Origin: an uncultured Bacilli bacterium
GTDB taxonomy: Bacteria > Bacillota_I > Bacilli_A > RF39 > UBA660
Assembly (NCBI GenBank): GCA_944329465.1
Contig: CALVII010000001.1
Location: 1-60,645 of the forward strand
Reading direction: 5' to 3'
Length of the DNA: 60,645 bases
Shown here: positions 24,228 through 49,636 of the stretch, in pieces
Layout of the letters: every line of letters begins with the position of its first letter
How positions within the stretch are numbered: the first letter of the stretch is position 1
Notes under the pieces: generated by a model
Database searches by the model: none
What the model was told of the DNA's origin: nothing
What the model saw: the letters and a program-made list of their open reading frames with translations, nothing else
Translations under genes and position numbers: made by a program

Positions 24228-26132
24228 CTACTGTGTAAATAACCTAACCGTTTTTCCCTCGTCTAATTTCGTGCCGGCATCTGGGGATTGATAAAGAACC
24301 TTTTTTCCATTACCTTCAACCGAAACATCAAACCCTTCTAACTCTTTTTTCGCCTCATCTATACTTTTACCAGCAACATCAGGTACCGTTAAAGTTTTAG
24401 GGTCTGGCCATTTGTATTTTTTATCTTTACCACCCTCACTTCTTTCAATATTTAAAGCTTTAATACAATCCTTTAAAACAGCTTTAGAAATAGGTCCCAC
24501 TGTTGTTCCTCCATACTGAACAGTCCCCTTTGGATTATCGATTGCAATATAAACGACAACCTTTGGATTATCCGCTGGCAAAAACCCTATAAATGACAAA
24601 ATATAATTATTAGATAAATAACGCCCATTTTCAACCTTTTGTGCTGTTCCTGTTTTACCACCTACCCTATATCCATCTATATATGAAGTTCTTCCACTAC
24701 CGTTTGCCACAACATTTTCTAAAGCTTCCCTTACTTTTTTACTAGTCTCTTCACTTATAACCTGCCTTACTTTCTCCGGCTTATTTTCTTTTATAACCGT
24801 ATTTGTCTCTGGTTCATTAATACTTTTAACAATATATGGTTTATATAAAGTACCGCCATTTATAGCCGCACTTACAGCCGTAACTTGCTGAATAGGTGTT
24901 ACTGAAACTCCTTGGCCAAAAGCCGTAGTAGCAAGTTCCACTGGACCAACTTTACTCCTATCAAAAATAATTCCGCTAGCTTCACCATTTAAATCAACAC
25001 CAGTTTTTTTACCAAAACCAAAAGCATTTATATAATCAAACAAAGTATTCTTACCAAGCCTTTGACCTAAAACAACAAATCCTGGGTTACAAGAATTCTC
25101 GACCACCTGCATAAACGTCTCTTTACCATGCCCACCATGTTTCCAACAATGAATTGTCGCATTTTCAACCTTTATACTTCCTTTGTCATAAAAAGTATCT
25201 TTATTTAAATCGACTTTCCCCTCTTCTAATGCCGCCGCTAAAGTAATTATTTTAAAAGTAGAACCAGGTTCATATGTCGCCCATATCGGTAAATTTCTAT
25301 TAATTTCCTCTAAACTATACTTTTGATAATTATTTGGGTCAAAGGTAGGTCTAGCCGATATAGCTAATATCTCACCATTATTAGGATCCATAACTAAACC
25401 AATTGCCCTATCCGGATTATATTTAGTAACCGCATTACTAAGTTCTCTTTCTAAAGAAGTTTGTATCTCATTATTAATAGTTAAAGTTATATTCATACCA
25501 TCTTGTGGCTGTTCATAAACCTCACTTAAAGATAACTTATTACCTTTCGCATCACTAAAATACTTAATAGCTCCATCCTCTCCAGTTAAATACTCATCGT
25601 ATGTCAGCTCTATTCCACTCAACCCCTGATTATCGATACCAACAAATCCTAAAGTATGAGCCATATAACTATCATAAGGATAAACCCTCTTTGATTCTTT
25701 AACTAAATATACACCATCTAATTTTAAATTCTTAATCTTATCAGCCACCTCATAAGATAATCTTCTACCTTCTGGATGCACTCTTTCAATAGATGTTTTT
25801 TTAGAAACATGTTTATACATATCCTCATAATCGACATTTAATATTTCAGCTAATTTAGTCGCCGTTTCTTTTTTATCTTTTATTTGATTTGGAATAACCA
25901 CTAAAGATGTTGTTGTCGCATTATCCGCAAGTACTACACCCGTTCTATCATAAATAAATCCCCTATCAGCTTTAATCGGCAAATTTCTACTCCATAAATC
26001 ACTAGCTTTTTGATTTAATTTTTTATAATCAATTACCTGAATATAAAAAACTCTTAATATTATTACAATAAAAATAAATAAAATAATTAACAATGTTATT
26101 TTCATCCTTTTGTGTATATTTTTAAAGAACAT
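24228..26132 (-). CDS. Class B penicillin-binding protein with one C-terminal PASTA domain (SpoVD/PBP2B-like)
   Basis: N-terminal TM, dimerisation domain, then the transpeptidase motifs STFK, SCN and KTGT. One C-terminal PASTA repeat (TVPDVAGKSIDEAKKEL...). The gene is intact. Confidence 0.9.
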   Translation of the reverse strand: MFFKNIHKRMKITLLIILFIFIVIILRVFYIQVIDYKKLNQKASDLWSRNLPIKADRGFIYDRTGVVLADNATTTSLVVIPNQIKDKKETATKLAEILNVDYEDMYKHVSKKTSIERVHPEGRRLSYEVADKIKNLKLDGVYLVKESKRVYPYDSYMAHTLGFVGIDNQGLSGIELTYDEYLTGEDGAIKYFSDAKGNKLSLSEVYEQPQDGMNITLTINNEIQTSLERELSNAVTKYNPDRAIGLVMDPNNGEILAISARPTFDPNNYQKYSLEEINRNLPIWATYEPGSTFKIITLAAALEEGKVDLNKDTFYDKGSIKVENATIHCWKHGGHGKETFMQVVENSCNPGFVVLGQRLGKNTLFDYINAFGFGKKTGVDLNGEASGIIFDRSKVGPVELATTAFGQGVSVTPIQQVTAVSAAINGGTLYKPYIVKSINEPETNTVIKENKPEKVRQVISEETSKKVREALENVVANGSGRTSYIDGYRVGGKTGTAQKVENGRYLSNNYILSFIGFLPADNPKVVVYIAIDNPKGTVQYGGTTVGPISKAVLKDCIKALNIERSEGGKDKKYKWPDPKTLTVPDVAGKSIDEAKKELEGFDVSVEGNGKKVLYQSPDAGTKLDEGKTVRLFTQ

Positions 26133-26249
26133 ATAATCACCATTTAAATATATGCTTTTGATAAATAAATGTGCACAAAAACTTTCATTTCGCTTGTTTT
26201 AATGGTGCATAAAATATGTGCATTATTTTTCGGCTCTACAATAGAATAT

Positions 26250-26279
26250 ATAAAAAGAAGAAAAATCTAATTCTTCTCC
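26250..26279 (-). terminator. rsgA terminator
   Basis: Minus strand AGAAGAAttagatttTTCTTCT followed by TTTTATAT. Confidence 0.55.
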
Positions 26280-26333
26280 ATAAAATTTCTTAATAATTTA
26301 CTATATTATAGTTTCTAAAAAACTAAATAAAAT

Positions 26334-27461
26334 TTATTTTATATCAGAATTTCTATCTTTTTTTACATTGGTTTTATGATATTCTGGATCTACTTCTTCT
26401 AATATTGTTTCATAATTTTTTCCAAGTACATCACTCATTATTCTTAAATAACTTTCGTAACGCTCTATACTTATTAGTCCACTAGCAACACCTTGTTTAA
26501 CTAGGCATGAATCATAAGGTTCGCTAAAATGAATACAATCCTTATATTTACAGTTACCTCTCCAATTTTCAAACTCAGGAAAATAATCTTGAATTTCAAT
26601 TGGATTAAAAGATGAAACGTCTAAACTTCTTATACCTGGTGTATCTATAATAGAGGAATCTTCTTCCCATACATAATATTTCGAAGTAGTTGTCGTGTGC
26701 CTTCCACGTTTACTTTTATCGCTAACATGTCCTGTTTTTATTTCATCATCACCCATTATAGCATTTGTAAGAGATGATTTTCCAACACCACTATTACCAA
26801 CAAATATTGCCTGTTTATTAATTAATCTATCTTTTAAATCATCAATACCAATATTACTATATGTAGAAGTTTCAATTACATCAATTCCTAAATTTCTATA
26901 TGTATCTAAAATTTCTTCATCCTCATCTGTTTTTAAATCACATTTATTCAAACAAATTATAGCAGGAATATTACTATTTTGAAGAATCATCAAATATCTA
27001 TCAATAAATTTAGGGTGTAATGGAGGTTCCTTCGCAGCAACAACAATTACAGCCAAATCAATATTTGAAGCAATATTTTTTGTTATCCCAACATCATTTA
27101 ATCTCGTGCTATCTTTTTTTGTCCTAGATAATATTGAAGTCCTTTTTAATAAATGATTAATAACATAATCGTCATTTACCTTTACTATATCAACTTTATC
27201 TCCTGGAAAAATAACTTGATTACAAATTAAGTTAACATCTTTTCTTAGTTTTGCTTGTGCGACTTCTCCATTATACAGTATGTAAGCCTCATCATATCTA
27301 ACTTCTATAACAACTCCATAATTATCAGAGTAATCAATAACAAAATTATCTATTGTTTCATTTTTCTTTCCAAAAGTTTTTTCTTTAGCTCTTCGTTTTT
27401 TTTCAATACTTTTCTTTGTTTTAAAACTATCATAAGCATTATAATGTGGCATAGTATACAT
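26334..27461 (-). CDS. rsgA: Ribosome small-subunit-dependent GTPase A (circularly permuted GTPase) with a Lys-rich N-terminal extension
   Basis: Permuted G-motif order NKCDL (G4) then GNSGVGKSSL (G1) then DTPG (G3). C-terminal zinc knuckle CKYKDCIHFSEPYDSC. The approximately 50-aa basic N-terminus is longer than usual. Confidence 0.88.
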   Translation of the reverse strand: MYTMPHYNAYDSFKTKKSIEKKRRAKEKTFGKKNETIDNFVIDYSDNYGVVIEVRYDEAYILYNGEVAQAKLRKDVNLICNQVIFPGDKVDIVKVNDDYVINHLLKRTSILSRTKKDSTRLNDVGITKNIASNIDLAVIVVAAKEPPLHPKFIDRYLMILQNSNIPAIICLNKCDLKTDEDEEILDTYRNLGIDVIETSTYSNIGIDDLKDRLINKQAIFVGNSGVGKSSLTNAIMGDDEIKTGHVSDKSKRGRHTTTTSKYYVWEEDSSIIDTPGIRSLDVSSFNPIEIQDYFPEFENWRGNCKYKDCIHFSEPYDSCLVKQGVASGLISIERYESYLRIMSDVLGKNYETILEEVDPEYHKTNVKKDRNSDIK

Positions 27462-27894
27462 CCTTATATAATTTTTGTTAGTTTTAGTGATTTACTAATA
27501 ATAGTATAACATTATTTTTATTTTTTTGATATTTTAACACCAATAAACACAGGATAAAAGCACGAAATTTCCCCTTTAAATAAAGGAATTACAATATACA
27601 AGGATAAACCATCAATATTTTTCTGTACAAAATTTAATATTCGTTTTAGATATTAAATTGATTGAGCAGTTAATTTTTACATTTATATTTCTTTCTTCAA
27701 CAAAATTTTCATTAAATTTTAAATTTTTATCTTTCATATTTAGTAATTTTAATATAGAATTATTTATAGCACCACAACACCCTCTATTCTGTTATTTTTA
27801 TTCTTCTAAAACATTATAGCAGGTTTGTTATGATGTCTTTTTTTGATATAAAAAAATACTGAAAATTTACTCAGCACCCTTTAATATCGAATAA

Positions 27895-27936
27895 CCTAAA
27901 AAATATGTGAGTTTTCTTCATAGTTCTTCACATATT
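27895..27936 (-). terminator. Terminator downstream of the HAD/Nudix pair
   Basis: Minus strand AATATGTGA-16 nt-TCACATATT followed by TTTTTAGG. Confidence 0.5.
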
Positions 27937-28032
27937 TTACTATATTATAGCACTTGATAAAATTAAATCAAGCAGATTTTGGTTCGTTTTTGGTACGAAT
28001 TTGGACTTTTTTGATACGTTTTGAAAACTTAA

Positions 28033-28815
28033 CTATTTTATCAATGTTTCAAGAAAAAATGCAACTCCATCTTCATCATTACTTTTAGTAATATAATCAG
28101 CATGCTTTTTTAATTGATCAGTCGAGTTTTCAACAGCTACTCCAAAACCAGCAATGTCAATCATAGATATATCATTATTATCATTACCAATTGCTATAGT
28201 ATTTTTAATAGGAATATCCAGGTACTCTGCTAATACTTTTAAAGATTTCCCTTTTGATGAATTAGAACTAATCACACTAAACCATAATTCCTCCTTGTCC
28301 TCTTTTGATGAATCAACAACACATAAATTAGATTTTTGTTCAATCAATGATTTGTATTTTTTAACTAATTCTTTTTCTTTGCTAATAATCATAATTTGTT
28401 TTATCTCTTTTTTTAATAATATATCGACATTATTATCATCTAACAAAATCTGTGAATCATTTCTGGTAAACATTGTTACATATTCAGTATTTTCTGATAC
28501 AAACATAACTCTAAGCCCAATCTTCTTTGTTTCTTGATATATTAATTTACATTCCTCTTTTGGTAAATATGTAGAATAAATATTTTTTTTATTAATATTA
28601 TCATAAATTTCTGTACCATTAGATGATATTAAATATTCATTTAAACCTGCTTCATTTGAAACCTTTAATGTATAATATCTTGGTCTTGCAGTACAAATAA
28701 CAACAGTATTCCCACATTCTACAACCTTTTTTATAATTTTTTTTGTTTTATCAGAGATATTACCATCAGAATGTCTTAATGTACCATCACTATCAATTGC
28801 AATTAAATATTTCAT
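28033..28815 (-). CDS. Cof-type HAD-IIB phosphatase
   Basis: Motif I IAIDSDGTL, motif II ICTARP, motif IV GNDNNDISM. Paralogous to the C-terminal 260 aa of the 36378-37559 product. Confidence 0.85.
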   Translation of the reverse strand: MKYLIAIDSDGTLRHSDGNISDKTKKIIKKVVECGNTVVICTARPRYYTLKVSNEAGLNEYLISSNGTEIYDNINKKNIYSTYLPKEECKLIYQETKKIGLRVMFVSENTEYVTMFTRNDSQILLDDNNVDILLKKEIKQIMIISKEKELVKKYKSLIEQKSNLCVVDSSKEDKEELWFSVISSNSSKGKSLKVLAEYLDIPIKNTIAIGNDNNDISMIDIAGFGVAVENSTDQLKKHADYITKSNDEDGVAFFLETLIK

Positions 28816-28816
28816 A

Positions 28817-29344
28817 TTAATCTTTATCCATATTAATTATTTTGTTATATTCTTTAAAAATGTCTAGCATTTCTTCAACAATTACCTTGTTTATTGGATT
28901 ATCAGGTATACTATCAATTAATACTTGTTCAACATTTTCAATTGGGAAAGTTTTAACAGTAAAATTACCATCTTTTTCCCAATCATCTAATTTTGAATTA
29001 TTCATATCAAATTTAGCATCAGTATTTATAATATAATAATAAATATCATTTTTTCTATTTTTACCAGATCCGTGATAATTTTTACTATAATAAGTAATTT
29101 TTTCAAATGGTTTTAATTTAGCGTCTTTTATTTCTATTCCAGTTTCTTCTTCTATTTCTCTTAATAAACATTCTTCTAAACTTTCGCCATCTTCTAAATG
29201 GCCACCTGGAAACTGATAAGTTTTATGAGAATAGCCTAAAGTTATTTCATTATTGCTATTAATAATCAAACCTTTTGTTCTAGTAACCACCTCATCAATA
29301 TCTTCTAATTTTAAATTATCATAATTATATAATATTTCTTTCAT
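28817..29344 (-). CDS. Nudix hydrolase (canonical box)
   Basis: GGHLEDGESLEECLLREIEEETGI matches Gx5Ex7REUxEExGU. The ATG at 29344 (MKEILYNY) follows GGAGTG. Paralog of the 37603 and 38135 products. Confidence 0.85.
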   Translation of the reverse strand: MKEILYNYDNLKLEDIDEVVTRTKGLIINSNNEITLGYSHKTYQFPGGHLEDGESLEECLLREIEEETGIEIKDAKLKPFEKITYYSKNYHGSGKNRKNDIYYYIINTDAKFDMNNSKLDDWEKDGNFTVKTFPIENVEQVLIDSIPDNPINKVIVEEMLDIFKEYNKIINMDKD

Positions 29345-29386
29345 ACAACTACACTCCATTCTTTAACTAGTTTATATTATATCACA

Positions 29387-29509
29387 TTATCTCAATAATT
29401 TTTTACTTTTGCTAAATAGAATATCATTATATAACTCATATTTAGGATACTTTTCTAGCCACATTAATGAGTTTAAACAATCAAAAAGTAATAATCTGTT
29501 ATCAAATTC
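29387..29509 (-). pseudogene. C-terminal remnant of an APH-like kinase gene (paralog of 38651-39481)
   Basis: Translates EFDNRLLLFDCLNSLMWLEKYPKYELYNDILFSKSKKLLR*. The C-terminus of the 38651 product is YFNYNLFLFEYLNSMRWIAKYPKYDKYRNVLFNKSKKFVR*. Homology stops abruptly at 29509/29510. Confidence 0.6.
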
Positions 29510-29605
29510 CCTAGTTTCGCATTTCTAGAGAATAAAAAACTGTTAAAACAAGCCTGTTTTCAACAAAAAATAAGCATTTATATGATTTTTAAATGCGAAA
29601 CTAGG
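29510..29605. repeat. 96-bp palindromic element with perfect 15-bp terminal inverted repeats
   Basis: CCTAGTTTCGCATTT (29510-29524) and AAATGCGAAACTAGG (29591-29605). The 66-bp interior contains an imperfect inner hairpin (TGTTAAAACAAG / CTGTTTTCAACA). Confidence 0.8.
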
Positions 29606-29745
29606 CTTATCACACACATTTCTATGCATTTCCTCTATATTTTTATAAAACAATTATATACATACTCAATATCATATTTTTTAGTGTATTTACTATTTAA
29701 TCCTCTAGTAATATTAAAGGTATCATTTATTAGACAACAAGGTGT

Positions 29746-29942
29746 ATAGGTGTTACTGATACACCTTGACCAAAAGCCATAGTAGCAAGTTCCACTGGAC
29801 CAACTTTACTCCTATCAAAAATAATTCCGCTAGCTTCACCATTTAAATCAACACCAGTTTTTTTACCAAAACCAAAAGCATTTATATAATCAAACAAAGT
29901 ATTCTTACCAAGCCTTTGACCTAAAACAACAAATCCTGGGTT
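29746..29942 (-). repeat. 197-bp direct copy of an internal segment of the PBP gene (24892-25088)
   Basis: Base-by-base comparison shows 4 mismatches, all within the leftmost 34 nt, and the remaining 163 nt are identical. The copy encodes NPGFVVLGQ...AFGQGVSVTPI and then stops. Similarity ends at CCTGGGTT, inside the recombinase ORF. Confidence 0.85.
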
Positions 29943-31686
29943 CCTTGGTGTCTAGCAAGAGATACTTTTGTCTTAAAAAATTATTGTCAAAAGACAATCT
30001 CAAGCTATAATCTCTATTTGTAATTTTTGTTTTTGTTTTTTCATCTTTATTATTCATGTTTGAATTATTATTATCTTTTTTGTTATAATCGAGTTCCATT
30101 TCTTGATCTGGTGTTTTAAAGTTAAATATCATTTGTAATTTCAAATGCTTGCGGTCGTTATTTATTTTGCTAACAAAAACTTTATCAATGAACAAATCAA
30201 AGTATTTACCAATATTTTCTTTTATATTTAATTTTGGAGTTAATAGTTCTCTTATATTATTAGCAATTTTTTCATAATATGATGGGGTTTCTCTATTTGT
30301 TTCACGTTCAATTAAATCTCTTTTTAATGTTGAAATTGTTTCTAATATCTTCTTGTTTTTTTCCATAAATTTTTCATCTGAAATCATTTTTCTTAATGAC
30401 ATATCTAATAATCTTTCTTTATAAGTTTCTTGCTCTTTTAATTTTTCTTTTAAAGTTTCTATATTATCATTATCATTGGTTTCTTTAATTAAATGTATAT
30501 AATCTGTTATTATTGTATTTAATAATTTTTCTTTATTATCTATAAATTTTTCTAATACCTCTGTAAATATTTCATCAAGATGCTTTTCAAATAATCTAGG
30601 AGTAGCACAACCCTTGATGCCGTGCCTTAAATATTCATTACATTGCCAAACTGGATTATCTTTTCTTTTACCGCTTGCACTCCTAATAAAAGTTGTATTA
30701 TGCTCCATGCAAAATATTTTTGATGTATATTTTCTATTTTCTAAATAAAATTCCTTATTCAATACATTTGCATTCCAATTACCATTTCTCTTTTTATATA
30801 TTTCATTACATTTATTCCATAATTCTTCTGATACAATTGGTGGAATATTTCCTTTTTTATCTTTTTCAACTATCCATTCGCTTTCTGGTTTTGCAACTTT
30901 TTTATGAGTTTTATAATCTTGAACTTCGGTTAAATTTGCTGTATAAAAACCTTTGTACCTAGGATTCTTTAACATTTTCTTTAATGTTACATCACTAAAT
31001 ATCTTCCCCTTTCTAGTATAATAACCATTTTGTGCTAATTTCTCGCCAATTTTTTGAAACCCATATTCTCCTGTTGAATATAAATCGTATAACATTTGAA
31101 CTGCCTTTGCTTCACTTTCAATTATAGTTAATTTTCCATCTTTTTTGCTATAACCATAAAGCCCACCACCACCACCAACTTTCCTATCTTTAATGCTTCT
31201 TCTAACTCCAAATTTTACTCTTTCAGATAATTTTCTAACCTCATCTTGAGCCATTGATGCCATAAGAGTTAATCTAAATTCACTATCTGGATAAATAGTG
31301 TTTATATTATCAGATATAAAAAACACTATAACACCATACTGTAATAATAATTGTGTATATTTTATGCTATCAATTGTATTACGAGCAAACCTGGATACCT
31401 CTTTTGTTAAAATCAAGTCAATTTTTCCTAATCTCGCATCTTCAATCATTCTTAAAAATTCTTCTCTTTTATATACCTGTGTACCTGAAATTCCTTCATC
31501 ACTATAACTGGCAACATGAGTCCAACTTTTAACATTGTCAATCATATCATCAATAGTAATCTTATCAGTATTATTTTTAATTTCATCTGTATTTCTAAGA
31601 ACTCTACTATAAACTGCAACTTTTAAGTCCATGTCATATATTGTTTTCCCAAGCATTAATTCTTGCCTTGTTTTAATTAAATCCAT
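29905..31686 (-). CDS. Large serine recombinase (resolvase/invertase N-domain plus recombinase and zinc-ribbon domains), possibly inactive
   Basis: VAVYSRV..., SYSDEGISGT, DLILTKEVSRFARN (E-helix SRxxR), Cys-rich CMEHN...CNEY...C zinc ribbon, and a long coiled-coil C-terminus. The last 12 codons and the stop lie in PBP-derived DNA. The expected nucleophile Ser in YxRVS reads Leu (YSRVL). Confidence 0.8.
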   Translation of the reverse strand: MDLIKTRQELMLGKTIYDMDLKVAVYSRVLRNTDEIKNNTDKITIDDMIDNVKSWTHVASYSDEGISGTQVYKREEFLRMIEDARLGKIDLILTKEVSRFARNTIDSIKYTQLLLQYGVIVFFISDNINTIYPDSEFRLTLMASMAQDEVRKLSERVKFGVRRSIKDRKVGGGGGLYGYSKKDGKLTIIESEAKAVQMLYDLYSTGEYGFQKIGEKLAQNGYYTRKGKIFSDVTLKKMLKNPRYKGFYTANLTEVQDYKTHKKVAKPESEWIVEKDKKGNIPPIVSEELWNKCNEIYKKRNGNWNANVLNKEFYLENRKYTSKIFCMEHNTTFIRSASGKRKDNPVWQCNEYLRHGIKGCATPRLFEKHLDEIFTEVLEKFIDNKEKLLNTIITDYIHLIKETNDNDNIETLKEKLKEQETYKERLLDMSLRKMISDEKFMEKNKKILETISTLKRDLIERETNRETPSYYEKIANNIRELLTPKLNIKENIGKYFDLFIDKVFVSKINNDRKHLKLQMIFNFKTPDQEMELDYNKKDNNNSNMNNKDEKTKTKITNRDYSLRLSFDNNFLRQKYLLLDTKEPRICCFRSKAW

Positions 31687-31708
31687 TTTGCTCTCCTTTC
31701 TTATATTT

Positions 31709-31915
31709 TTACGATTTTTCTTCTAAAATAATCTTGTCCATTTTTTTAATTAATAGTTTTTGCATTTTACTATATATGTTATAGGATATTATTTTATTTT
31801 CTAAAAGTTCCTTATTAAATGACATCCTTAATTTTAAAATGAGGTACTCTTTAGGCAATTCTTTCGAATCTGTAAAAAATTGTAATTCTTCAATCGTATT
31901 TGTATTCAAAATCAT
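31709..31915 (-). CDS. Small hypothetical protein upstream of the recombinase
   Basis: 68-aa ORF with a GAGGAGGG RBS. The C-terminal ELLENKIISYNIYSKMQKLL is weakly SHOCT-like. Confidence 0.45.
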   Translation of the reverse strand: MILNTNTIEELQFFTDSKELPKEYLILKLRMSFNKELLENKIISYNIYSKMQKLLIKKMDKIILEEKS

Positions 31916-31945
31916 TCCCTCCTCACATTAAGATTATTAAATTCT

Positions 31946-31976
31946 AAACAAAAAAGAACTCAAATACTGAGTTCTT
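31946..31976 (-). terminator. Terminator after the 32089-32604 gene
   Basis: Minus strand AAGAACTCAgtattTGAGTTCTT (9-bp stem) followed by TTTTTGTTT. Confidence 0.65.
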
Positions 31977-32088
31977 ACAAAATTTGCTAGTAAAAACTCA
32001 ATATTTTCTTAATGAAAGAGAGTACCTCTATAAATCATTATTTAAAATATTAAGTTTTCAAATAACAATTTATATTATTAATAACATA

Positions 32089-32604
32089 TTAAACACTTTG
32101 ACTTTTTTTAAAATTTTGTATTTGATTAGCTATATCAAAACCACCTAAACTTGATCCTAGTGATATAACTAAAGTCTTTTCTTTAAAGTAAGTTTCATTA
32201 TCATACCTAATTATTACCTCACTAAATACATCAAGTTTTTCATTAAAATTTAGTTTTTCAAATTTCGATGCAATTTCTTTTTCTTCATTATTAAAATAAA
32301 TACCTATTACATTTCCATTATATTCATAAGCATCTTTACTATTAGTGGCACCATTGTATAACATAGCAAAATATTGTAACAAAATAGTACAAGCATTTTT
32401 TGAAAGTCCAATTACCTCCGAATCAAATATTTTCATATCATCATCTTCTATCAAATCTGGATTAGGCTCATTCCTATCATTAATTTGATTGTTATTTAAC
32501 AAATTAAAAATATATATAAGAAATTTTAATTTGCTAATATCATTCTTATCTTCCAACTCCTCAATAAATTTTTTAACCTCATTTGTAGTTTCAGTAATAT
32601 ACAT
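32089..32604 (-). CDS. Hypothetical protein
   Basis: ORF with an AAGGAGGA RBS 8 nt before the ATG at 32604 (MYITETTNEV...). The track ORF starts earlier at a TTG. No recognisable motif. Confidence 0.5.
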   Translation of the reverse strand: MYITETTNEVKKFIEELEDKNDISKLKFLIYIFNLLNNNQINDRNEPNPDLIEDDDMKIFDSEVIGLSKNACTILLQYFAMLYNGATNSKDAYEYNGNVIGIYFNNEEKEIASKFEKLNFNEKLDVFSEVIIRYDNETYFKEKTLVISLGSSLGGFDIANQIQNFKKSQSV

Positions 32605-32812
32605 ATTATCAATCCTCCTTACGTTATATAACTGAATTAGAGCCATTTTAAACGACATTCTTTTTTTGCTCTTATAACTATTCAAGTCATCACATTAAAT
32701 GCAACAGCGATTAAAAGAAACACATATAACGGCTCTTTTTTTCGTTTTATTTATCACTTAAAAAAAGAAATTTTGCAAGAGTTTTTTTATAAAAAATTAT
32801 CTTTCTAATTCT

Positions 32813-33355
32813 TTATAACTTTTTTTCTTCTATTAGCGTTAAATTGTTGTCTTTAATATTATCTATAAGGCTTTCATTTGAAGTAAATATCGTTTCAAAT
32901 GCTTTTTTTCTTGGTATTTCATGTTCATATTCAACAAAATTATGATATTTACTACTTTGATTAACAAAGTTTTTTAACGCCTCATAAGAAGCATCACTAT
33001 TGCATCTTATATATAGCCTTTCTTCTGCTGGTACAAAAAACTCATACCCATCTTCGTAATAACTATCATTTTTACTATTATAAATGCATATAACATTATC
33101 TTTATCACAAAAAATTATTGCTTTATGATGATATGATTCACTATTATCAAATTCTGCATCTAATATTTCTCCAACATCAATTAAACCTGTTTTACACTTA
33201 CTTGGTAAAAGTTTTACATTAGTGCAATCAGTTGTCATAAAAGCACCTTTTGTTTCTCCTTTAACACTACATGATAATATCCTGTCATATTCTGTCATTT
33301 TATCTTTATTAAAATTACCATTCATAATATTTGCTAATTTTTCTTTCAAATTCAT
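32813..33355 (-). CDS. Hypothetical protein
   Basis: 180-aa ORF starting 2 nt after the helicase fragment stop. No recognisable motif. Confidence 0.5.
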   Translation of the reverse strand: MNLKEKLANIMNGNFNKDKMTEYDRILSCSVKGETKGAFMTTDCTNVKLLPSKCKTGLIDVGEILDAEFDNSESYHHKAIIFCDKDNVICIYNSKNDSYYEDGYEFFVPAEERLYIRCNSDASYEALKNFVNQSSKYHNFVEYEHEIPRKKAFETIFTSNESLIDNIKDNNLTLIEEKKL

Positions 33356-33357
33356 TA

Positions 33358-34830
33358 CTATCTCTCCATTTCTTCTTCATTAGTTTCTTCAATATTTCTA
33401 GTGTTTTCTTGTTTATCTAAATCAAGTTCACTATCAATTCTTGCTTTCTCTTTTTGTAATTCTTTAATTCTCCCTTGTTGTGTAAATGGTTTATCAAGTT
33501 CTTCTTTAACATCTATAAGTTGTTTTTCGGTATAAGCAATTTGGTCTTTTACAGTACCAATTTTATTATCAAAACTTTTCAGCATATTTTCTAACTTTAA
33601 AATATTACCTATTTCATCAGTATTATTAATTTCAACTTTATATTTTCCTGCACCTTTTATATAAATAACTGGCTTATACCACAATTCATCTTTAGTACCA
33701 ACAATATCAAAACCACTTATTTCGCCGAGTTTAGTTTCCTCTCTCGGTTTTAAAAGAGAAAAACTTTCATAAAATTTTGTGCTAGCATCTTTTCTAGAAT
33801 CATAAATTTTATCTCTAATAGTAATTACAAAATTATCAGCAGACAAGTCTTTTACATTTTTTATATCTTCTTCAAGACCACTTAAGTATTTCTTTTTATA
33901 TTTTAGTTCTCTTGGTAATTCAGTATTATATTTTGCCTCAAGTTCAATATGTGATTTATCATATCTACTTTTAGATAAATATAATTGTTTTAATTCGTTT
34001 TCTACTTTAAACTTTTCAAGAATTAATGGATTACCACTAGCAAGTGCTTTAACCTCTGCATAAGTAAGTGTATCTCTATCTAAATCTTCGGCAGTTCTTC
34101 CACCACCACTACTATTAGACATTATTTGATTAATGAAAGTTGCTTTTGTTTGGATTAATTGATAAGAGTAAGCATCAAAACTGCCTTCAGTAACATAACG
34201 ATATATTTCTACTTCATCATTTTGATTACCTTGTCTTAAAATTCTTCCTTCACGTTGTTCAATATCAGATGGTCGCCATGGACAATCTAAATGATGTAAA
34301 GCAATTAACTTGTCTTGAACATTCATTCCTGCTCCCATTTTAGAAGTTGATCCTATCAAAATTCTTTTCGTTCCATTTCGCATATCTTCAAAAAGTTTTA
34401 ATTTTTGAGGATTAGTTTTTGCATTATGAATATACTCGATTTCATCTGCTGGTACTCCTCTAGCAATAAGTTTATTTTTAATATCATCATAGACATTGAA
34501 AGAACCATCATTTTTAGGAGTAGATAAATCACAAAAGACAAGTTGTGTTAACTTGTCCTCTTTGTTTTCTAACCATATTCTATAAATATTTTCTACTGCC
34601 ATATTTATTTTTGAATTAGGTAAATCTGGCATACTAGGATCTATCATTCTTAAATCGAGTGCTGCTTTTCTACCATCATTAGTTACTAAAAGCATATTAT
34701 CTTCTCTTGGATCACAACCATTCCTAATAATTTCACTACGTTCTGCTAATTTATTAACATATTCAGCAAGTTCTTCACTCTTTGGAGCAACTACTGTTTT
34801 ATAATCTCCACCTTTTAATTTAGGATAAAC
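33358..34830 (-). pseudogene. C-terminal fragment of a large SF2 (SNF2/DEAD-like) helicase typical of conjugative elements
   Basis: Helicase-C motifs ILIGSTSKMGAGMNVQ and HLDCPWRPSDIEQREGRILRQGN. The open frame runs upstream of the first Met to 34830 without a start. The N-terminal ATPase lobe and any upstream domains are absent. Confidence 0.7.
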
Positions 34831-34945
34831 TTAGAAATAAAGTTTTTTAAAAGCTCTCAGATTGTACTTTTTTAAAGCACTTTCTAACTTCTTGAACTTT
34901 TTTTCATTTTTATAATCAAAAACATATTTTTCCATTGTACATAAC
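34831..34945 (-). pseudogene. Truncated third copy of the 35094/35794 paralog family
   Basis: Encodes MEKYVFDYKNEKKFKKLESALKKYNLRAFKKLYF then TAA, where the paralogs have GAA (Glu). It keeps the conserved upstream leader. It is fused in frame to the helicase fragment at the shared TTTTAATTTAGG. Confidence 0.7.
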
Positions 34946-35093
34946 CCTTCCTTAGTGATAACAACTGATATAACATAAAATTTAAAAAATTAGAAGAAAA
35001 ATCATAATCTTTAGGAACAACGACTATTTATGCTTTATACAATTTAGTAAGATGTAAAACTAAATGCAATCCCAAAAATCATGAAAGTTGCAT

Positions 35094-35573
35094 TTACTTT
35101 TTCATTTGATCCTTTATAGCTTCGAATAAACTTGTTTTAACTTCACAATGATATAAAAAATCTTTTTTAACATCCTTTTTAACATTTTTGGAATTAACTA
35201 TATCTAAAAGTCTTTTTATAAACTCAAGATCTTCGTCAGTGGTAAGAAAAGGTTTTGATTGATATTGTTCACTTATAGCATCCTCCGGTGAGAAAGTAAT
35301 CAAAGTTACACTCTCGCTATCTTCATCTACTTCATAATGAAGTTTAACCTCACCATAAGTTTTAGCAAATAATGCGTCTGTTGGCAAGTCTAAAACATAC
35401 TCCATTATATTTCCTTCTTCTTTCACAACATGACCTATAAATTCACCAGCTTTTAATTTAGGATAAACTTCGAAATAAAGTTTTTTAAAAGCTAACGGAT
35501 TGCATTTTTTTAAATCCTTTTCTAACTTCTTGAACTTTTTTTCATTTTTATAATCAAAAACATATTCTTCCAT
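35094..35573 (-). CDS. Hypothetical protein, tandem paralog 1 (weakly RelE/ParE-like layout)
   Basis: 159 aa from the ATG at 35573 (MEEYVFDYKNEKKF...), preceded by AGGAAGGG. The N-terminal approximately 100 aa are more than 60 percent identical by eye to paralog 2. The ...KLHYEVDEDSESVTLITFSP block recalls the RelE/ParE beta-sheet core. Confidence 0.55.
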   Translation of the reverse strand: MEEYVFDYKNEKKFKKLEKDLKKCNPLAFKKLYFEVYPKLKAGEFIGHVVKEEGNIMEYVLDLPTDALFAKTYGEVKLHYEVDEDSESVTLITFSPEDAISEQYQSKPFLTTDEDLEFIKRLLDIVNSKNVKKDVKKDFLYHCEVKTSLFEAIKDQMKK

Positions 35574-35793
35574 TCTACATAACCCTTCCTTAGTGATGTT
35601 AATTGATATAACATAAAATTTAAAAATAAGAAGAAAAATCATAATCTTTAGGAACAACAACTATTTCTAACTTATATAATTTAATGTTTACATACTTAAA
35701 TAATTATCAACCGTTTCTATTTTTCACAAAAATACCCTTTTATAAATAAAAATAACTTTAAATTCAAAAAAACTAATTTTTATCATAATATTT

Positions 35794-36231
35794 TTACAAA
35801 TTAAGCCATTTATCATGATGACCATTATTAATTTTTTCTAATAAATCTATTTTAAATCTATCTAACTCAGGATGTTGTTTTGAAAGCATAACTCCATTAT
35901 AAGTAATTAATTCTGACTGATGACCTTCTTTCAATATATCTGCTGGAGATATAGAACTCAAAATTATAACTTTGTTATATTCATCTACCTCATAATGTAA
36001 TTTAATCATGTCATAGACTTTAGCAAATAATTCATAAGTTGGCAAATCCAAAACATACTCTTTTATATTTCCTTTATCTTTTACAACTTTACCAATAAAT
36101 TCACCAGCTTTTAATTTAGGATAGATTTCAAAATACAGTTTTTTAAATGCAAACATATTATACTTTTTCAATGCACTCTCTATCATTTTAAACTCATTTT
36201 CATTTTTATAACCAAAAACATATTTTTCCAT
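35794..36231 (-). CDS. Hypothetical protein, tandem paralog 2
   Basis: 145 aa from the ATG at 36231 (MEKYVFGYKNENEF...). Same leader and RBS as paralog 1. The C-terminal third is divergent. Confidence 0.55.
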   Translation of the reverse strand: MEKYVFGYKNENEFKMIESALKKYNMFAFKKLYFEIYPKLKAGEFIGKVVKDKGNIKEYVLDLPTYELFAKVYDMIKLHYEVDEYNKVIILSSISPADILKEGHQSELITYNGVMLSKQHPELDRFKIDLLEKINNGHHDKWLNL

Positions 36232-36377
36232 TGCACATAACCCTTCCTTAGTGATGACAACTGATATAGCAAAATGCATTAAAGTTATCTATATAAAAGT
36301 ATCATAAAATTTTTCTTTGTATTATGCAATCATGTAACTAATAAAACATAAACCGAAATAAAAACCGATTTAGTTAA

Positions 36378-37559
36378 TTATTGAATCAATTTTTCCAAAA
36401 AAGCAGCTACTCCATCATTATTATTAGATAATGTAACATAATCTACATTTGACTTTATTAAATCAACCGCATTTGCAACTGCCACACTAAATCCACAACT
36501 ATTAAACATTGAAATATCATTTTTATCATTACCAATTGCAATTGTGTTTTTTAATGGAACTTTTAAATAATTAGATAATCTTATTAAAGCATTGCCTTTT
36601 GATACATTACTATTAGAAACACTAAACCATTCCTCACTAAAGATAGAAGTGTCTTTTGTTTCATCAACAATACAAACTTTTTTATTTTTCTTGATTTGAT
36701 TTTTAATTTTTTTTATCTCGTTTTTATTTGAGCCAATAAACATACATTGTTTTATATTTAAATCGCTTAATTGGTTATTATAATTATATTTATCAATTAA
36801 AACTTGATTAGCATTTCTTACTTCTTTTGTAACATAATCAGTATCACCTGTGGATAAAACTAATCTTATATCATTCAAATATGCACATTTAACAAAATTA
36901 AATATTTCATTCTTGTCAATATATAATCCATCAATAATCTTATTAGTACTTATATCATATATTTCTGCACCATTTGAAGAAATAACTATATCTGTAGTTC
37001 CAGCTTTTTTAGCCACTTCTATAGCTTGATATCTAGGTCGTGATGTGCAAATTACAATTATATTTCCATTCTTTTTATTATCTTTAATTGCTTTTTTTGT
37101 TCTATAAGAGATTGTTCCATCAGATCTAGTTAGTGTATCATCATTATCAATTAAAATCATTTTTTTATTGTTGTTTATTTTAGAAATAAACAAATTTTTG
37201 TCATGTACACATTCTATATCTAATTCGTTCATCATTTGGATTAAAGTGTCATATTTACTGTCTAATGGGATGTATACAATAAATGGGAAACGTTGAAAAT
37301 GCACAAAATGTTTTTTCAGACGTAATAATTCGTTATTAAATGTGTTATCACTATTAAAATAATATGTAAATAATGTTTTTGTTTGTTCAACATACGGTTT
37401 AGAAAAACAAGATAAATCATAGGAAAGTCTAATTGGAATTAATTCAATATCACTATTTATAAGATTATTGACTATAAAATTCTCATCATCTTCTATAAAT
37501 GCAACAACTCGTTTATCTTTTAAATTTTGCATTTCACCAAATACATCATAATCTTCCAT
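36378..37559 (-). CDS. Two-domain protein: unknown N-terminal domain (about 130 aa) fused to a Cof-type HAD-IIB phosphatase
   Basis: HAD motif I ILIDNDDTL, motif II ICTSRP, motif IV GNDKNDISM. The N-terminal domain has no recognisable motif. Confidence 0.8.
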   Translation of the reverse strand: MEDYDVFGEMQNLKDKRVVAFIEDDENFIVNNLINSDIELIPIRLSYDLSCFSKPYVEQTKTLFTYYFNSDNTFNNELLRLKKHFVHFQRFPFIVYIPLDSKYDTLIQMMNELDIECVHDKNLFISKINNNKKMILIDNDDTLTRSDGTISYRTKKAIKDNKKNGNIIVICTSRPRYQAIEVAKKAGTTDIVISSNGAEIYDISTNKIIDGLYIDKNEIFNFVKCAYLNDIRLVLSTGDTDYVTKEVRNANQVLIDKYNYNNQLSDLNIKQCMFIGSNKNEIKKIKNQIKKNKKVCIVDETKDTSIFSEEWFSVSNSNVSKGNALIRLSNYLKVPLKNTIAIGNDKNDISMFNSCGFSVAVANAVDLIKSNVDYVTLSNNNDGVAAFLEKLIQ

Positions 37560-37602
37560 TTACATTATGCCATCCATTTCATATAAATATATAAGTAAAT
37601 TT

Positions 37603-38121
37603 TTAACCATTTACTTGTTTTAAGTATTCCTCAATGGCTGATATCATATCTGGAGAAATGATCTTATTTTCTTCGTTATTTGGAATATTTTCTTTTATTT
37701 TTTCAATGGCTTCATTCAATTTAAAAGTTTCTATTTGATAATTATTCCGTTTTTCATGTTCCGTATAATTAACTTTTGTTAAATCAGGCTTTTTATTTGT
37801 TTTAATTATATAATAATATATTTCTGATTTTCTGTTTTTGCCTTTTTCCGGCCAATCCTTATTCATAAAAGTTACTTTCATAAAAGGTCTTTCAATTTCA
37901 TCATCATTAATTTCAATGCCAGTTTCTTCTGACACTTCTCTTTTCAAACACTCGTTAAACGTTTCATTTTGTTCAAGATGTCCACCGGGAAATTGGAACA
38001 AGCTATTTTCATTTCCAATTAAAATTTTATCACCATTAATAATAAGTGCTTTAGTTCTGATGACTGTTTCAGTAATATCAGATTCATTTAAATAATCATA
38101 ATTGTAAATAATTTCTTTCAT
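37603..38121 (-). CDS. Nudix hydrolase (canonical box)
   Basis: GGHLEQNETFNECLKREVSEETGI. The ATG at 38121 (MKEIIYNY) lies 9 nt after AGGAGA. Confidence 0.85.
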   Translation of the reverse strand: MKEIIYNYDYLNESDITETVIRTKALIINGDKILIGNENSLFQFPGGHLEQNETFNECLKREVSEETGIEINDDEIERPFMKVTFMNKDWPEKGKNRKSEIYYYIIKTNKKPDLTKVNYTEHEKRNNYQIETFKLNEAIEKIKENIPNNEENKIISPDMISAIEEYLKQVNG

Positions 38122-38134
38122 TTTACGCATTCTC

Positions 38135-38644
38135 CTAAAATTTTTTAGAAATTGCTAATATGTTTAACATTTCTTTAGCAATACCCCTAGTATCACCAAA
38201 TTTTTTAGCATTTTTTGTGATTTCAGATTTAACATCTTTTACATTTATATATTTATGGCAAAAATTACCAGCTTTTTCATTATCAGTTAAATGTAAATTT
38301 TCTTCATGTGGTTTTTCTTCTAATATTAACTCATAATAATTAATTTCTATCTTTTTATTTCGCCTTTTCTCAGGCCAATCTTTATAATACCCTATTGCTT
38401 GAGCAAAGGGCTCTAATGAAGTTAAATTCAATTTTATTCCAAGTTCTTCTTCTATTTCACGATTAATTGTATTAATTAAACTTTCGTTAGGTTCTACTGT
38501 TCCGCCTGGAAATTCAAAATCATTATGAGCATACACTAAAAGCATTTGATTTTCTTTATTAAAAATTAACAATTTTACTTTTTGTACATAATCTGTAATA
38601 TCTTTGTCTAATAAATTATCCTCATTATAAATTATTTTTTTCAT
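38135..38644 (-). CDS. Nudix hydrolase (canonical box)
   Basis: GGTVEPNESLINTINREIEEELGI. Same subfamily as the 37603 and 28817 products (shared ...WPEK.RNKK.EI.YY... block). Confidence 0.85.
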   Translation of the reverse strand: MKKIIYNEDNLLDKDITDYVQKVKLLIFNKENQMLLVYAHNDFEFPGGTVEPNESLINTINREIEEELGIKLNLTSLEPFAQAIGYYKDWPEKRRNKKIEINYYELILEEKPHEENLHLTDNEKAGNFCHKYINVKDVKSEITKNAKKFGDTRGIAKEMLNILAISKKF

Positions 38645-38650
38645 ATTATA

Positions 38651-39481
38651 TCACCTCACAAATTTTTTCGACTTATTAAATAATACATTCCTATATTTAT
38701 CATATTTAGGATATTTGGCAATCCATCTCATTGAATTTAAATATTCAAACAAAAATAAATTGTAATTAAAATATTTATTATTATATATATCTGGTGCTAA
38801 TTGACATATAATACTTTTAATAGATTGGAATGCCATGTTATCAATAATCACATTATTGTCTTTATTAATAAATGAATATGGATCATCAGCCATTCTAAAA
38901 ATAGAATATATTTCTTTTTCTATAGGAGCAAATTCTATATGTTCAAAGTCAACCAATTTTAAACAATCATTATTAACATATATAACATTATTGAATTGTA
39001 AATCACCATGAATTTGAAAACAAGTATGCATATAGAAATGGCTTTTAATATATTCACGCATTTCCAATAAACATTGAATTGAATTATCATTTGGAATAAT
39101 ATTATTTTCTAGAATAATACTCAAATATTTATCGAATTCTGCTAAATATATATATTGATAATTTTCTTTTGAACGTATTTTATGCAATTCATTGCAAATT
39201 TTTTTTAAGGCGATTAAAACCTGCTGCCTATCACTAACAGATAAAGTACTCCATACTGTAAACAAATTATATCCTTTTATTTTTTCAATAATAATATACA
39301 TGTTATTACAGTCAGTATTATATTCGTATAATTTTGGCATAAAATCATAATGCCTATTCAAATAAAAATCCACTTCCCTTAAAAAATTTTCTCGCCTATT
39401 TAGATTATAACATACTTTTTTTAAACTGTCTTGATTTATAATAATTTCATTATTAAAACCAATTTTTATTTTCTGTTCCAT
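38651..39481 (-). CDS. Aminoglycoside/choline-kinase-fold (APH-like) small-molecule kinase
   Basis: Catalytic loop IHGDLQFNNVIY (HxDxxxxN) and metal-binding LVDFEH (DFE). Confidence 0.7.
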   Translation of the reverse strand: MEQKIKIGFNNEIIINQDSLKKVCYNLNRRENFLREVDFYLNRHYDFMPKLYEYNTDCNNMYIIIEKIKGYNLFTVWSTLSVSDRQQVLIALKKICNELHKIRSKENYQYIYLAEFDKYLSIILENNIIPNDNSIQCLLEMREYIKSHFYMHTCFQIHGDLQFNNVIYVNNDCLKLVDFEHIEFAPIEKEIYSIFRMADDPYSFINKDNNVIIDNMAFQSIKSIICQLAPDIYNNKYFNYNLFLFEYLNSMRWIAKYPKYDKYRNVLFNKSKKFVR

Positions 39482-39493
39482 AAATATTCCTCA

Positions 39494-41014: not shown

Positions 41015-41639
41015 TATTAATCACTAATACCTTTTTTTTACTTTTTGTTGATTGATTAAAATTAAGAAATTGGTCAACTAATTCATTAGGAGTAAATAAT
41101 TCCGAATCTAATTCAATTGGTAAAATATCAAATTTCTGAATTAATTGCTCCCACATTTTTCTTTCCCATATACTTTGTATTTTCACTTCTTCAACATTTG
41201 TAGAACGCATACTACGTTCACCTCTATTAAACCTATCCAGCATTCTTGAATAAATTACCTCAGGACTACAATTAATCAAAACTGCACTAATATTAGTATT
41301 CAAATTCAATAATGTGTTAATTAAATTATTGGATAACGTAGCAACATACGACAAATCTCCATCTATTGAAACAAAATCTTTATTTCTTTGCAAGGCGTAA
41401 TGAACATCTGAAACAACACAATTATGTTGAGTACAAAATGAAATAAATTGATTATCAGCCTCTTCAGAAGAAACATAACTAAACATATTGGCTTCATCAT
41501 ATCCTTTTTGTACTGCACAATCTTTAAATGCATCTAAACGCCTATAAGTATCACAATTATATTTCTTTTTTAATTCCTTCACAAAAGTACTTTTACCACT
41601 ACTTGAAGCTCCACCAACAAATATCAAATTATTAGCCAT
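40983..41639 (-). CDS. P-loop kinase-like protein
   Basis: Walker A FVGGASSSGKSTF within the first 20 aa. Size and layout of small-molecule/nucleotide kinases. 32-nt overlap with the downstream gene. Confidence 0.55.
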   Translation of the reverse strand: MANNLIFVGGASSSGKSTFVKELKKKYNCDTYRRLDAFKDCAVQKGYDEANMFSYVSSEEADNQFISFCTQHNCVVSDVHYALQRNKDFVSIDGDLSYVATLSNNLINTLLNLNTNISAVLINCSPEVIYSRMLDRFNRGERSMRSTNVEEVKIQSIWERKMWEQLIQKFDILPIELDSELFTPNELVDQFLNFNQSTKSKKKVLVINNGKNNTRNNK

Positions 41640-41642
41640 ATA

Positions 41643-42884: not shown

Positions 42885-42937
42885 CTCATTTTATCATTTT
42901 CTGTTTTAAACATGCCATCAAAGTTATTATATTGTCT

Positions 42938-47978: not shown

Positions 47979-47979
47979 T

Positions 47980-49533: not shown

Positions 49534-49636
49534 TTATATATCAATAAAATAAAATATCAATTTTAAATACATCATATAACATTTTTAAATATGTTTGTTT
49601 ACTAATAAAAAAATAAATCATAATTGACTTATTTTT

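Follow-up and report, generated by a model that had tools for sequence, protein, structure and literature searches.

A spoVD relic between two putative recombinase attachment sites, and a probable island-borne rebuilding of the gene, in an uncultured bacterium of the order RF39

A stretch of 60,645 nucleotides from contig CALVII010000001.1 (assembly GCA_944329465.1; here called the window), which belongs to an uncultured bacterium of the class Bacilli, carries an intact gene for a spoVD-like class B penicillin-binding protein (PBP) and, in addition, a 200-bp copy of the interior of this gene that abuts a serine recombinase gene. The locus raises the question how a piece from the middle of a cell-wall gene came to lie beside a recombinase gene while the gene itself is whole. 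As judged from the comparison of the window with related contigs, the copy is probably the piece of spoVD between two attachment (att) sites of large serine recombinases (LSR), and the locus as a whole is likely to represent a two-site fossil together with a gene rebuilt from an island-borne part. The features on which the argument turns are the following (positions in the window; E1 and E2 are the elements at sites 1 and 2).

24228..26132, minus strand: spoVD-like class B PBP gene, 634 aa, with STFK, SCN and KTGT motifs and Transpeptidase, PBP_dimer and PASTA domains; intact, apparently chimeric
29743..29942, minus strand: spoVD relic, codons 349-414; the segment from site 1 to site 2, resident-type allele
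29939..29968, minus strand: putative attR1, with overlap AACC (29939-29942) and element-side arm GTATCTCTTGCTAGACACCAAGG; 12-nt inverted-repeat arm at 29954-29965
29607..29744, minus strand: putative attL2, with core CA (29743-29744), P' arm CCTTGTTGTCTAATAAATGATAC (29720-29742) and the conserved island left end to about 29607
29905..31686, minus strand: LSR1, large serine recombinase gene, 593 aa, predicted to be dead; last 12 codons and stop from spoVD DNA

Within the window, BLAST aligned 29743-29942 with 24889-25088 as a direct repeat with 195 of 200 identical bases (97.5%), which a gap-free repeat finder reported as a direct repeat of 207 nt (96%). All five mismatches between copy and gene, at gene nt 1208 (ACG to ATG, Thr to Met), 1218, 1224, 1227 and 1242, lie within 37 nt at the left end of the copy. 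A preliminary description of this DNA, made from the letters alone, had set 29746-29942 against 24892-25088, with four mismatches in the leftmost 34 nt (three synonymous, and the change of Thr to Met) and 163 identical nt; all of this was reproduced, as were the end of the similarity at CCTGGGTT in the gene context ...E N S C N|P G F... and the imperfect dyad around 25078-25099. The description had placed the break directly after the Asn of the SCN motif; the location holds, but not the strict placement after the codon, because the shared bases (AACC) include the entire Asn codon, so that the break lies inside or beside it. The recombinase open reading frame (ORF) was confirmed to take its last 12 codons and its stop from PBP DNA in another frame, and ends ...K-E-P-R-I-C-C-F-R-S-K-A-W-stop. 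The window contains no right junction matching the copy, as had been stated, and no further att half-site. A chance origin of the 200-nt repeat is excluded, since a repeat search across the 60-kb window found no second repeat of comparable quality.

The organism is uncultured, and short repeats are classic points of mis-joining; the copy might thus be an assembly artefact, joined in from the resident gene or from reads of a co-occurring strain. However, the order recombinase, fragment and island end was assembled independently from many samples and species, i.e. in contigs of at least six sample accessions and several projects (L001-L003, L008-L011, L006, L061, L093, L095-L097; L-numbers denote contigs or loci, and P-numbers proteins, compared in this analysis), and an equivalent fragment lies between LSR1 and the left end of E2 in L001-3, L006, L008-11, L061 and L093-97. 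Further, both edges of the copy fall on reconstructed att cores, and the copy differs from the resident gene at five positions and matches another natural allele. Because the same arrangement recurs in this many accessions, an artefact is very unlikely.

The intact gene scores 756 bits against the SpoVD equivalog model TIGR02214 (cut-off 688), has a single PASTA domain and the SxxK, SxN and KTG motifs, and is followed by mraY and an ftsW/spoVE gene. The preliminary description had proposed that the copy is an att junction of a serine-recombinase element whose insertion broke a spoVD-like PBP gene within the codons of the SxN motif, and had named PBP genes interrupted at SCN|PGF in relatives, as well as the reciprocal junction, as a check. 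This proposal is supported and generalises to relatives. In L004 and L005, a complete conjugative element (with a TraG/VirD4 coupling protein and a 2110-aa SNF2 helicase) has LSR1 at its end, immediately followed by spoVD codons 347-632, and in L007 the LSR1 protein P0001, which is 95% identical to that of the window, is encoded directly before spoVD codons 347-634. Both close and distant relatives of the recombinase thus precede a spoVD 3' part that starts with N-P-G-F. The reciprocal junction, attL1, is available in L001, and attP1 was reconstructed from attL1 and attR1 of this contig as GTATCTCTTGCT-AGACACCGGGG-AACC-TAGTAGAGA-AGCAAGAGATAC, with perfect 12-bp inverted arms; the same two junctions give attB1 as ..ACTCATGT-AACC-CAGGCTTTG.. 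Of attP1, the window retains the left half (29943-29968) together with the overlap (29939-29942), the attP1 arm has a single match in the whole window, and the attB1 core of the intact gene (25085-25088) is unoccupied. The junction had been named attL; it is an att junction, but in gene orientation it is the right end of the element (attR), a matter of naming only.

Large serine recombinases integrate at short, imperfectly palindromic attB sites. Here, too, the reconstructed attP sites have inverted arms, attB is an imperfect dyad, and identity is limited to a few central bases (overlaps AACC and CA), from which we infer the crossover positions at both sites. The junctions show site 1, with the overlap AACC in the Asn-Pro codons, as the predicted attB of the LSR1 family, whose members stand at the right ends of integrative conjugative elements (ICE).

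Homologues of LSR1 are numerous, and all share the sequence ...RQKYLLLxTxEP near the C-terminus. In a strict test, the tails of 86 of the 120 best homologues fitted the +1 reading of AAY-CCN-GGN-TTY (NPGF read off-frame), and more variants fit; typical tails have EP or ES, then R, W or G, then I, L, F or V, then C. Among the best 120 relatives of LSR2, the second recombinase family described below, most tails are off-frame readings of QQVTAVSAAINGG. Both recombinase genes are thus shown, by translation of these tails, to run across their own putative attP, and their last codons would therefore be read from spoVD DNA after integration. That the reading frame always crosses the att core in both families, and that the attP arm supplies the codons for the conserved last residues, might indicate that the copy has been kept as useful, i.e. 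as a C-terminal tail and stop for the recombinase or as a decoy attachment site. This is highly improbable: the tails vary freely with host codon usage and often stop after two to three codons, the recombinase of the window appears to be dead, the copy holds only half of each attB, and relics in relatives are deleted piecemeal. The copy itself is most likely without function.

The preliminary description had correctly taken the copy as a leftover of an interrupted gene, but had overlooked its left end as a second att junction, so the copy is not an arbitrary truncation. The stretch at 29607-29742, which covers the 110-140 nt to the left of the copy, is 91-95% identical to an island end that lies behind the fragment in L001, L006, L061 and L093-L097. 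The same end lies behind spoVD(1-417) in L092, L094 and L102-L107, after LSR2 in the attP-form contig L101, and beside an APH-like gene in L100. The stretch is identified as the end of an element, because the sequence beyond it is different in every contig compared; this end was absent from the viral contigs scanned. The core CA of site 2 falls in the codons TPIQ|QV, 65 codons downstream of site 1, and is present in the intact gene at 24889-24890 (gene nt 1243-1244). From the LSR2-to-left-end joint in L101, and with the tails of P0160 and P0175, which translate the left end of the island, attP2 reads CATTTAATAGAC-GACGTTA-CA-CCTTGTT-GTCTAATAAATG, a 12-bp imperfect palindrome around the central CA.

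LSR2 comprises 559 aa and is 45% identical to LSR1. Together with a conserved core of three small ORFs it precedes the 3' part of spoVD in L001 and in L098 (a 1.68-Mb contig), and L104 contains a complete island of about 10.5 kb in the order spoVD(1-418)|end, ABC transporter, hydrolase, AbiEi/AbiEii, core and LSR2. Three contigs (L001, L002, L008; 95% aa identity) contain spoVD in three pieces, P(1-349)|E1..LSR1 (a 10-kb element)|P(347-417)|E2..LSR2|P(412-634)-mraY-ftsW, and the fragment in the window is the exact counterpart of the middle piece. The split state of spoVD is common, since among the 120 best relatives of spoVD(1-413) about 30 are ORFs of 418 aa with the end ..TPIHLVV*. Site 2, with its central CA, is shown by these arrangements as the predicted attB of the LSR2 family, which would be carried by mobilizable islands of about 10.5 kb with AbiE, ABC-transporter and similar cargo. 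It was also considered whether the final 44 nt of the copy are carried along by the island; this was rejected, as the fragment of L006, compared with L004 of the same species, is the host allele up to the CA core.

An LSR2-type island (recombinase 87% identical, same left end) at 879-11641 of L100 is inserted in an APH-like gene and not in spoVD; its cargo comprises a KAP NTPase, AbiE and a type I restriction-modification system. By this junction, the LSR2 family has at least one predicted target besides spoVD.

The intact gene, which lies 4.8 kb downstream of the copy, is the second part of the question. A module that runs from the second att junction into the gene has the following parts.

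24891..29742, minus strand: E2b island module, comprising left end, NUDIX, HAD, RsgA-like GTPase, promoter and spoVD codons 1-414, without a recombinase
28817-29359, minus strand: NUDIX gene, E2b cargo
28033-28815, minus strand: Cof-type HAD gene, E2b cargo
26334-27461, minus strand: RsgA-like GTPase gene, E2b cargo; passes the TIGR00157 equivalog model
about 26133-26185, minus strand: spoVD promoter, conserved in all relatives

E2b has the make-up of a cis-mobilizable element, i.e. it is bounded by attL2 on the left and by a joint of the attB2 type on the right and lacks an LSR2 core; complete relatives are present in L104 and L101. The RsgA-like GTPase gene, although it passes the equivalog model, belongs to the cargo of the island: the LSR2 island of L001 contains it as well (89% aa identity), and short relics of it remain in L019 and L108.

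Two contigs from another species, L109 and L110, were obtained in different projects (source samples ERZ28615105 and ERZ24773469), and the spoVD gene differs between them by one base. Compared with window positions 27403-24891 they are 91-100% identical, with 99-100% identity from RsgA to gene nt 1250 and no mismatch over gene nt 449-1250, whereas from gene nt 1251 through mraY and ftsW they are only 72-87% identical to the window; no species in the set exceeds 85% identity over this latter part. In the 4.5-kb shared alignment the identity switches within 7 nt of the attB2 core, which is the resolution limit set by the first informative site. The 5' spoVD part of the window is 99.1% identical to L109 and 97.3% to the conspecific contig L108, whereas the 3' part is 97% identical to L108 and 80% to L109. 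The mosaic of L109 and L110 shows, at the level of sequence, that promoter and spoVD codons 1-414 behave as a module joined to the 3' ends of two hosts at the putative site 2, and hence that the intact spoVD appears as a chimera of an island-borne 5' two-thirds and a host-type 3' end, with the joint at the site-2 core. Actual mobilization of E2b we infer from the same two contigs. The joint may have been made by excision of a functional LSR2 island that once lay between the 5' part of the module and the 3' part of the host.

The fragment matches L108 at 198 of 200 positions, as against 195 of 200 for both the window's own gene and L109, and thus represents the resident allele; the variants at nt 1218, 1224 and 1227 are common to the window's gene and L109. 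The earlier suggestion that the copy and the gene are different alleles therefore stands, but with the direction reversed: the copy is of the resident type, and the 5' two-thirds of the gene are incoming. Gene conversion need not be invoked for the 163 identical bases, as gene nt 814-1217 do not vary between conspecific alleles in any case.

The synonymous differences at gene nt 1218, 1224 and 1227 (24889-24920 against 29743-29774) fall within what is presumed to be the half-site of the recombinase, at a distance of 17-26 nt from the site-2 core; the attB2 allele on the island-borne spoVD is GGCCAAGGAGTTTCAGTAACACCTATTCAGC, and the fragment carries the other allele. In the site-2 flank, the fragments of distant species are more alike mutually than they are like intact genes. 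Speculatively, the island-borne allele may be a target-escape allele, and used sites might share a recombinase half-site consensus.

The same locus might have arisen entirely in situ, through a tandem duplication of spoVD of which the upstream copy took up the elements, followed by a deletion that removed the LSR2 core and the 3' part; the 5' part of the gene would then not be mobile, and the mosaic of L109 and L110 would reflect ordinary homologous recombination across species with an end near site 2 by coincidence. An incongruence scan of the 5' and 3' parts in 80 species representatives, which found nothing beyond a generally higher 5' conservation, agrees with such an origin, and so do the cargo-to-promoter joints, which vary by lineage as independent deletions would have it, and the about equal similarity of the 5' and 3' parts to L108 within the species. 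It is nevertheless improbable in view of the breakpoint at no more than 7 nt from the attB2 core, of the 5' part being nearer to contigs of another species than to L108, and of the lack, in all 80 loci, of a relic of spoVD codons 415-634 upstream of an intact gene. Two further routes to the rebuilt gene were rejected, namely homology-facilitated illegitimate recombination and the Campbell-type integration of a circle formed by aberrant excision, since with either of them the crossover could lie at any point of the 5' part instead of at the att core.

For the two-site fossil with an island-borne rebuilding of the gene, the following history is proposed. A former spoVD copy would have been hit at two intragenic attachment sites, and the 200-bp copy would be its fossil. 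Where a 5' spoVD copy had an outer attL2 on one side and a site 2 downstream, a composite would form when a functional LSR2 island entered the downstream site, and excision by the outer attL2 and attR2 would move the old cargo together with the promoter and spoVD(1-414). The composite would integrate into spoVD in a new host, where the inner, functional island would subsequently excise, leave the cargo in place and rebuild an intact, chimeric gene, while the 5' part of the host's own gene would remain upstream as a relic, open to hits at site 1 and whittled by deletions. The second island in the window would finally have lost its recombinase core. By analogy with known composite elements, it is the outer part of such a composite, via outer attL2 and attR2, in which the module may have travelled.

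Loci of relatives contain related arrangements. The contig L061 of a distant species (PBP 69% identical) has the site-1 junction, the island end, a fragment that shares 91% identity with the spoVD gene of L061 itself, and cargo in the order of L104 up to AbiEii; an intact spoVD follows the cargo, with no LSR2. In L012 and L108 the AbiE cargo lies directly before the promoter, and L012 keeps shredded 5' relics at the native gene start. L019 contains a 5' relic, a piece of the island end, a 5' piece of rsgA, a second promoter with 19 codons, another gene and an intact spoVD, and L092 has an island-end relic 2.1 kb upstream of spoVD(1-417), which a new island has interrupted in turn. At position -50 of spoVD the similarity ends in all relatives, and a third attachment site was therefore considered there; it was rejected, as the 55 nt in common are accounted for by the conserved promoter with its ribosome-binding site, in front of which the terminators vary.

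Several points weigh against the proposed history. Contigs L109 and L110 start inside rsgA, so that the left side of the module is beyond the assembled sequence, and neither the predicted host relic nor the island end was seen in these contigs of that species. The history further needs a founding event that put a 5' copy downstream of island cargo, for which a tandem duplication with deletion, or an aberrant excision, would do. No further mosaics appeared in the incongruence scan of the 80 species representatives. The cargo-to-promoter joints differ among the window, L012 and L061, which requires later deletions or several founding events, and the left boundaries of both older elements are gone in the window, where the order of events is a reconstruction; recombination itself is deduced from the junctions.

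The element at site 1 is represented by a remnant with the following parts.

31709..37575, minus strand: remnant of conjugative element E1, with ORFs of 68, 198 and 180 aa, a helicase fragment, repeats and a HAD-fusion gene
33358-34695, minus strand: 3' fragment of an SNF2/DarB-like helicase gene (PHROG hit to DarB-like)
34800-36284, in the E1 remnant: three repeats of about 640 nt, direct, 74-90% identical
36378-37559, minus strand: left-end HAD-fusion gene of the E1 remnant

Window positions 34825-29743 are 74-79% identical to the right end of the full ICE that splits spoVD in L004 and L005, and 37575-36746 match, at 94%, the gene that borders attL1 on the inner side in L001. What survives of the conjugative element is its right 4.9 kb (34825-29943) and the left-end HAD-fusion gene; the left att junction of E1 and spoVD codons 1-348 are deleted. 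With no transfer genes, E1 lacks the conjugation module between att sites of an ICE and is a remnant. The repeats, located between the HAD-fusion gene and the helicase fragment, contain two ORFs, 35094..35660(-) (188 aa) and 35794..36279(-) (161 aa), with no Pfam or PHROG match.

LSR1 of the window has the domains PF00239 (Resolvase), PF07508 (Recombinase) and PF13408 (Zn_ribbon_recom), all above cut-off, and matches PHROG 95 (integrase; E 1.6e-93). The Y-x-R-V-S motif reads YSRVLRN, however, and thus lacks the nucleophilic serine, whereas in 14 aligned homologues R and V are invariant and S is near-invariant (RVST). Its N-terminus is YSRVLRNTDEIKNNTDKIT, compared with YGRVSTDKDDQLNSLENQVNYFN in relatives, and the N-terminal 85 aa or so correspond to a decayed 176-aa duplicate upstream of the true gene in L007. 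By this comparison, LSR1 of the window is a predicted pseudo-enzyme, a deletion fusion with a decayed duplicate in which the nucleophilic serine was lost, and because of this loss the site-1 junction would be frozen; relatives of LSR1 such as P0001 are intact. In relatives, one or two decayed copies of the N-terminal part of LSR1 stand in tandem before the gene itself (L001, 9057-9943; L007, 1572-2102), and window positions 31430-31686 are the fusion region of the dead LSR1, from recombination between a decayed N-terminal copy and the true gene. Directly upstream of both recombinases lies an ORF of 64-68 aa (window, 31709-31915; L001, 16814-17020); these ORFs have no homology to each other and no family match in Pfam and NCBIfam searches, and are candidate directionality factors.

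The window has a G+C content of about 27%, with nearly all genes on the minus strand. A scan of species-representative genomes with the PBP yielded 80 intact orthologues, all from uncultured gut Bacilli (Candidatus Coprosoma, Firmicutes bacterium CAG:822, "Tenericutes" metagenome-assembled genomes); Coprosoma is the GTDB genus CAG-822 of the order RF39 (PMC8035907). The native locus is represented by the naive relative L013, with the order mraZ-rsmH-ftsL-PBP (723 aa)-CmpB-cardiolipin synthase-PGA_cap, 230 nt, and spoVD-mraY-ftsW. Between PGA_cap and spoVD, the conspecific L108 (95-98% nt identity) has 1.5 kb, with AbiEi and an 81-nt RsgA relic. The corresponding region of the window is as follows.

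26181..51186, minus strand: strain-variable island array, 25.0 kb, between PGA_cap (51457-52605) and the spoVD promoter

The array contains a LysR/NUDIX/aminotransferase/ATP-grasp/ABC cluster, the E1 remnant, the relic and E2b, and is considered strain-variable because of its 25.0 kb in the window compared with 1.5 kb in L108. The cluster (38651-51033) comprises LysR, NUDIX, two aminotransferase-like, ATP-grasp ligase-like and kinase-like genes, a binding-protein/permease fusion and an ABC ATPase; a homologue (64-69% nt identity) is the cargo of a site-2 island directly after the spoVD fragment in L006, and the cluster has the look of a mobile pathway of the small-molecule or amino-acid ligase type. 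Two CmpB-like (PF06541) genes on the plus strand (21008-21652, 54539-55189) are each located directly behind one half of the division/cell-wall cluster.

Elements that intervene in sporulation genes are known, i.e. skin in sigK, SPbeta in spsM and gin in gerE (PMC4191935, PMC5499854, PMC5595907, PMC5025042). In these elements, as here, an LSR gene is at the element end, the insertion is inside a sporulation-family gene at a short imperfect dyad, and precise excision would rebuild the gene; in contrast, the present locus has two sites 65 codons apart, each with a recombinase family of its own, the elements, one conjugative and the other a mobilizable defence island, are not prophage-like, and the gene of the window was apparently rebuilt without excision, from an island-borne 5' part. 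In the papers retrieved on sporulation intervening elements spoVD is absent as a target, and a search of the accessible literature gave no precedent for serine recombinases in PBP genes.

Whether the spoVD elements persist because they are likewise cut out in the mother cell during sporulation, as skin, SPbeta and gin are, with this ability lost in the lineage of the window and the damage mended in another way, is a separate matter, and one that is compatible with the anatomy of the locus. The target passes the spoVD equivalog model, RF39 bacteria are predicted to sporulate with spoVD reported as patchy (PMC10868615), split spoVD is common in natural populations, and the known intervening elements use large serine recombinases (PMC4191935, PMC5595907). 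On the other hand, no recombination directionality factor was identified, the mutually unrelated 64-68 aa ORFs having no family match; the elements are ordinary conjugative or mobilizable ones with defence cargo; and the second class B PBP (723 aa) could make spoVD dispensable. Developmental excision is thus possible but doubtful. The same tentative standing applies to the joint claim that spoVD of RF39 is a dedicated two-site landing pad, that its elements are tolerated because of excision in sporulation, that decayed islands spread across species as composites with the promoter and codons 1-414, so that every transfer exchanges the front two-thirds of a gene of an essential pathway and leaves the old front behind as a relic, and that the variants at nt 1218, 1224 and 1227 could make the rebuilt gene a poorer target.

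Tandem accretion and cis-mobilization have been described for ICESt1/ICESt3 of Streptococcus thermophilus and for PAISt of Streptomyces (PMC5704250). As in such arrays of ICE, integrative mobilizable elements (IME) and cis-mobilizable elements (CIME), decayed att-bearing elements lie here beside functional ones, and alternative att pairs can excise composites and move decayed cargo; however, ICESt1/ICESt3 and PAISt use tyrosine recombinases at the 3' ends of genes or in tRNA genes and trap little of the target, whereas the mid-gene site described here traps the promoter and 414 codons and gives a functional chimera in the next host. The element SXT reportedly integrates into prfC (Hochhut and Waldor 1999) and supplies a new promoter and 5' coding end, so that the target stays functional as a hybrid. 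SXT reportedly uses a tyrosine recombinase and replaces only a short 5' end, with a sequence that belongs permanently to the element. In the present locus the site is that of a serine recombinase and is located two-thirds of the way into the gene, and the replacement, of 1.24 kb, seems to have been captured from a host. The IMEs with serine recombinases that disrupt dispensable genes, e.g. rumA (PMC5704250), and the arrays of staphylococcal cassette chromosomes (SCC) formed by Ccr at rlmH (PMC11470126), likewise combine serine recombinases at a conserved housekeeping gene with defence cargo and tandem arrays, but differ in the target gene and from the two sites in one gene seen here, and SCC spares rlmH through a site at the 3' end. 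The system observed in the window is thus a combination of known kinds, LSR-borne gene-intervening elements and tandem accretion.

The spoVD gene of this abundant uncultured gut lineage is a widely used target with, by the present reading, a pair of intragenic LSR attachment sites in a cell-wall/sporulation gene, and the attP and attB sequences are usable for direct testing as recombination tools. Split spoVD, present but in pieces in many contigs, may explain the patchy occurrence of spoVD in surveys of RF39 bacteria, and the hypothesis of developmental excision becomes testable beyond Bacillus and Clostridium. Intragenic site-specific recombination together with tandem accretion could move most of a housekeeping gene across species and give functional chimeras, and such mosaics with a joint at an att core could be mistaken for homologous recombination.

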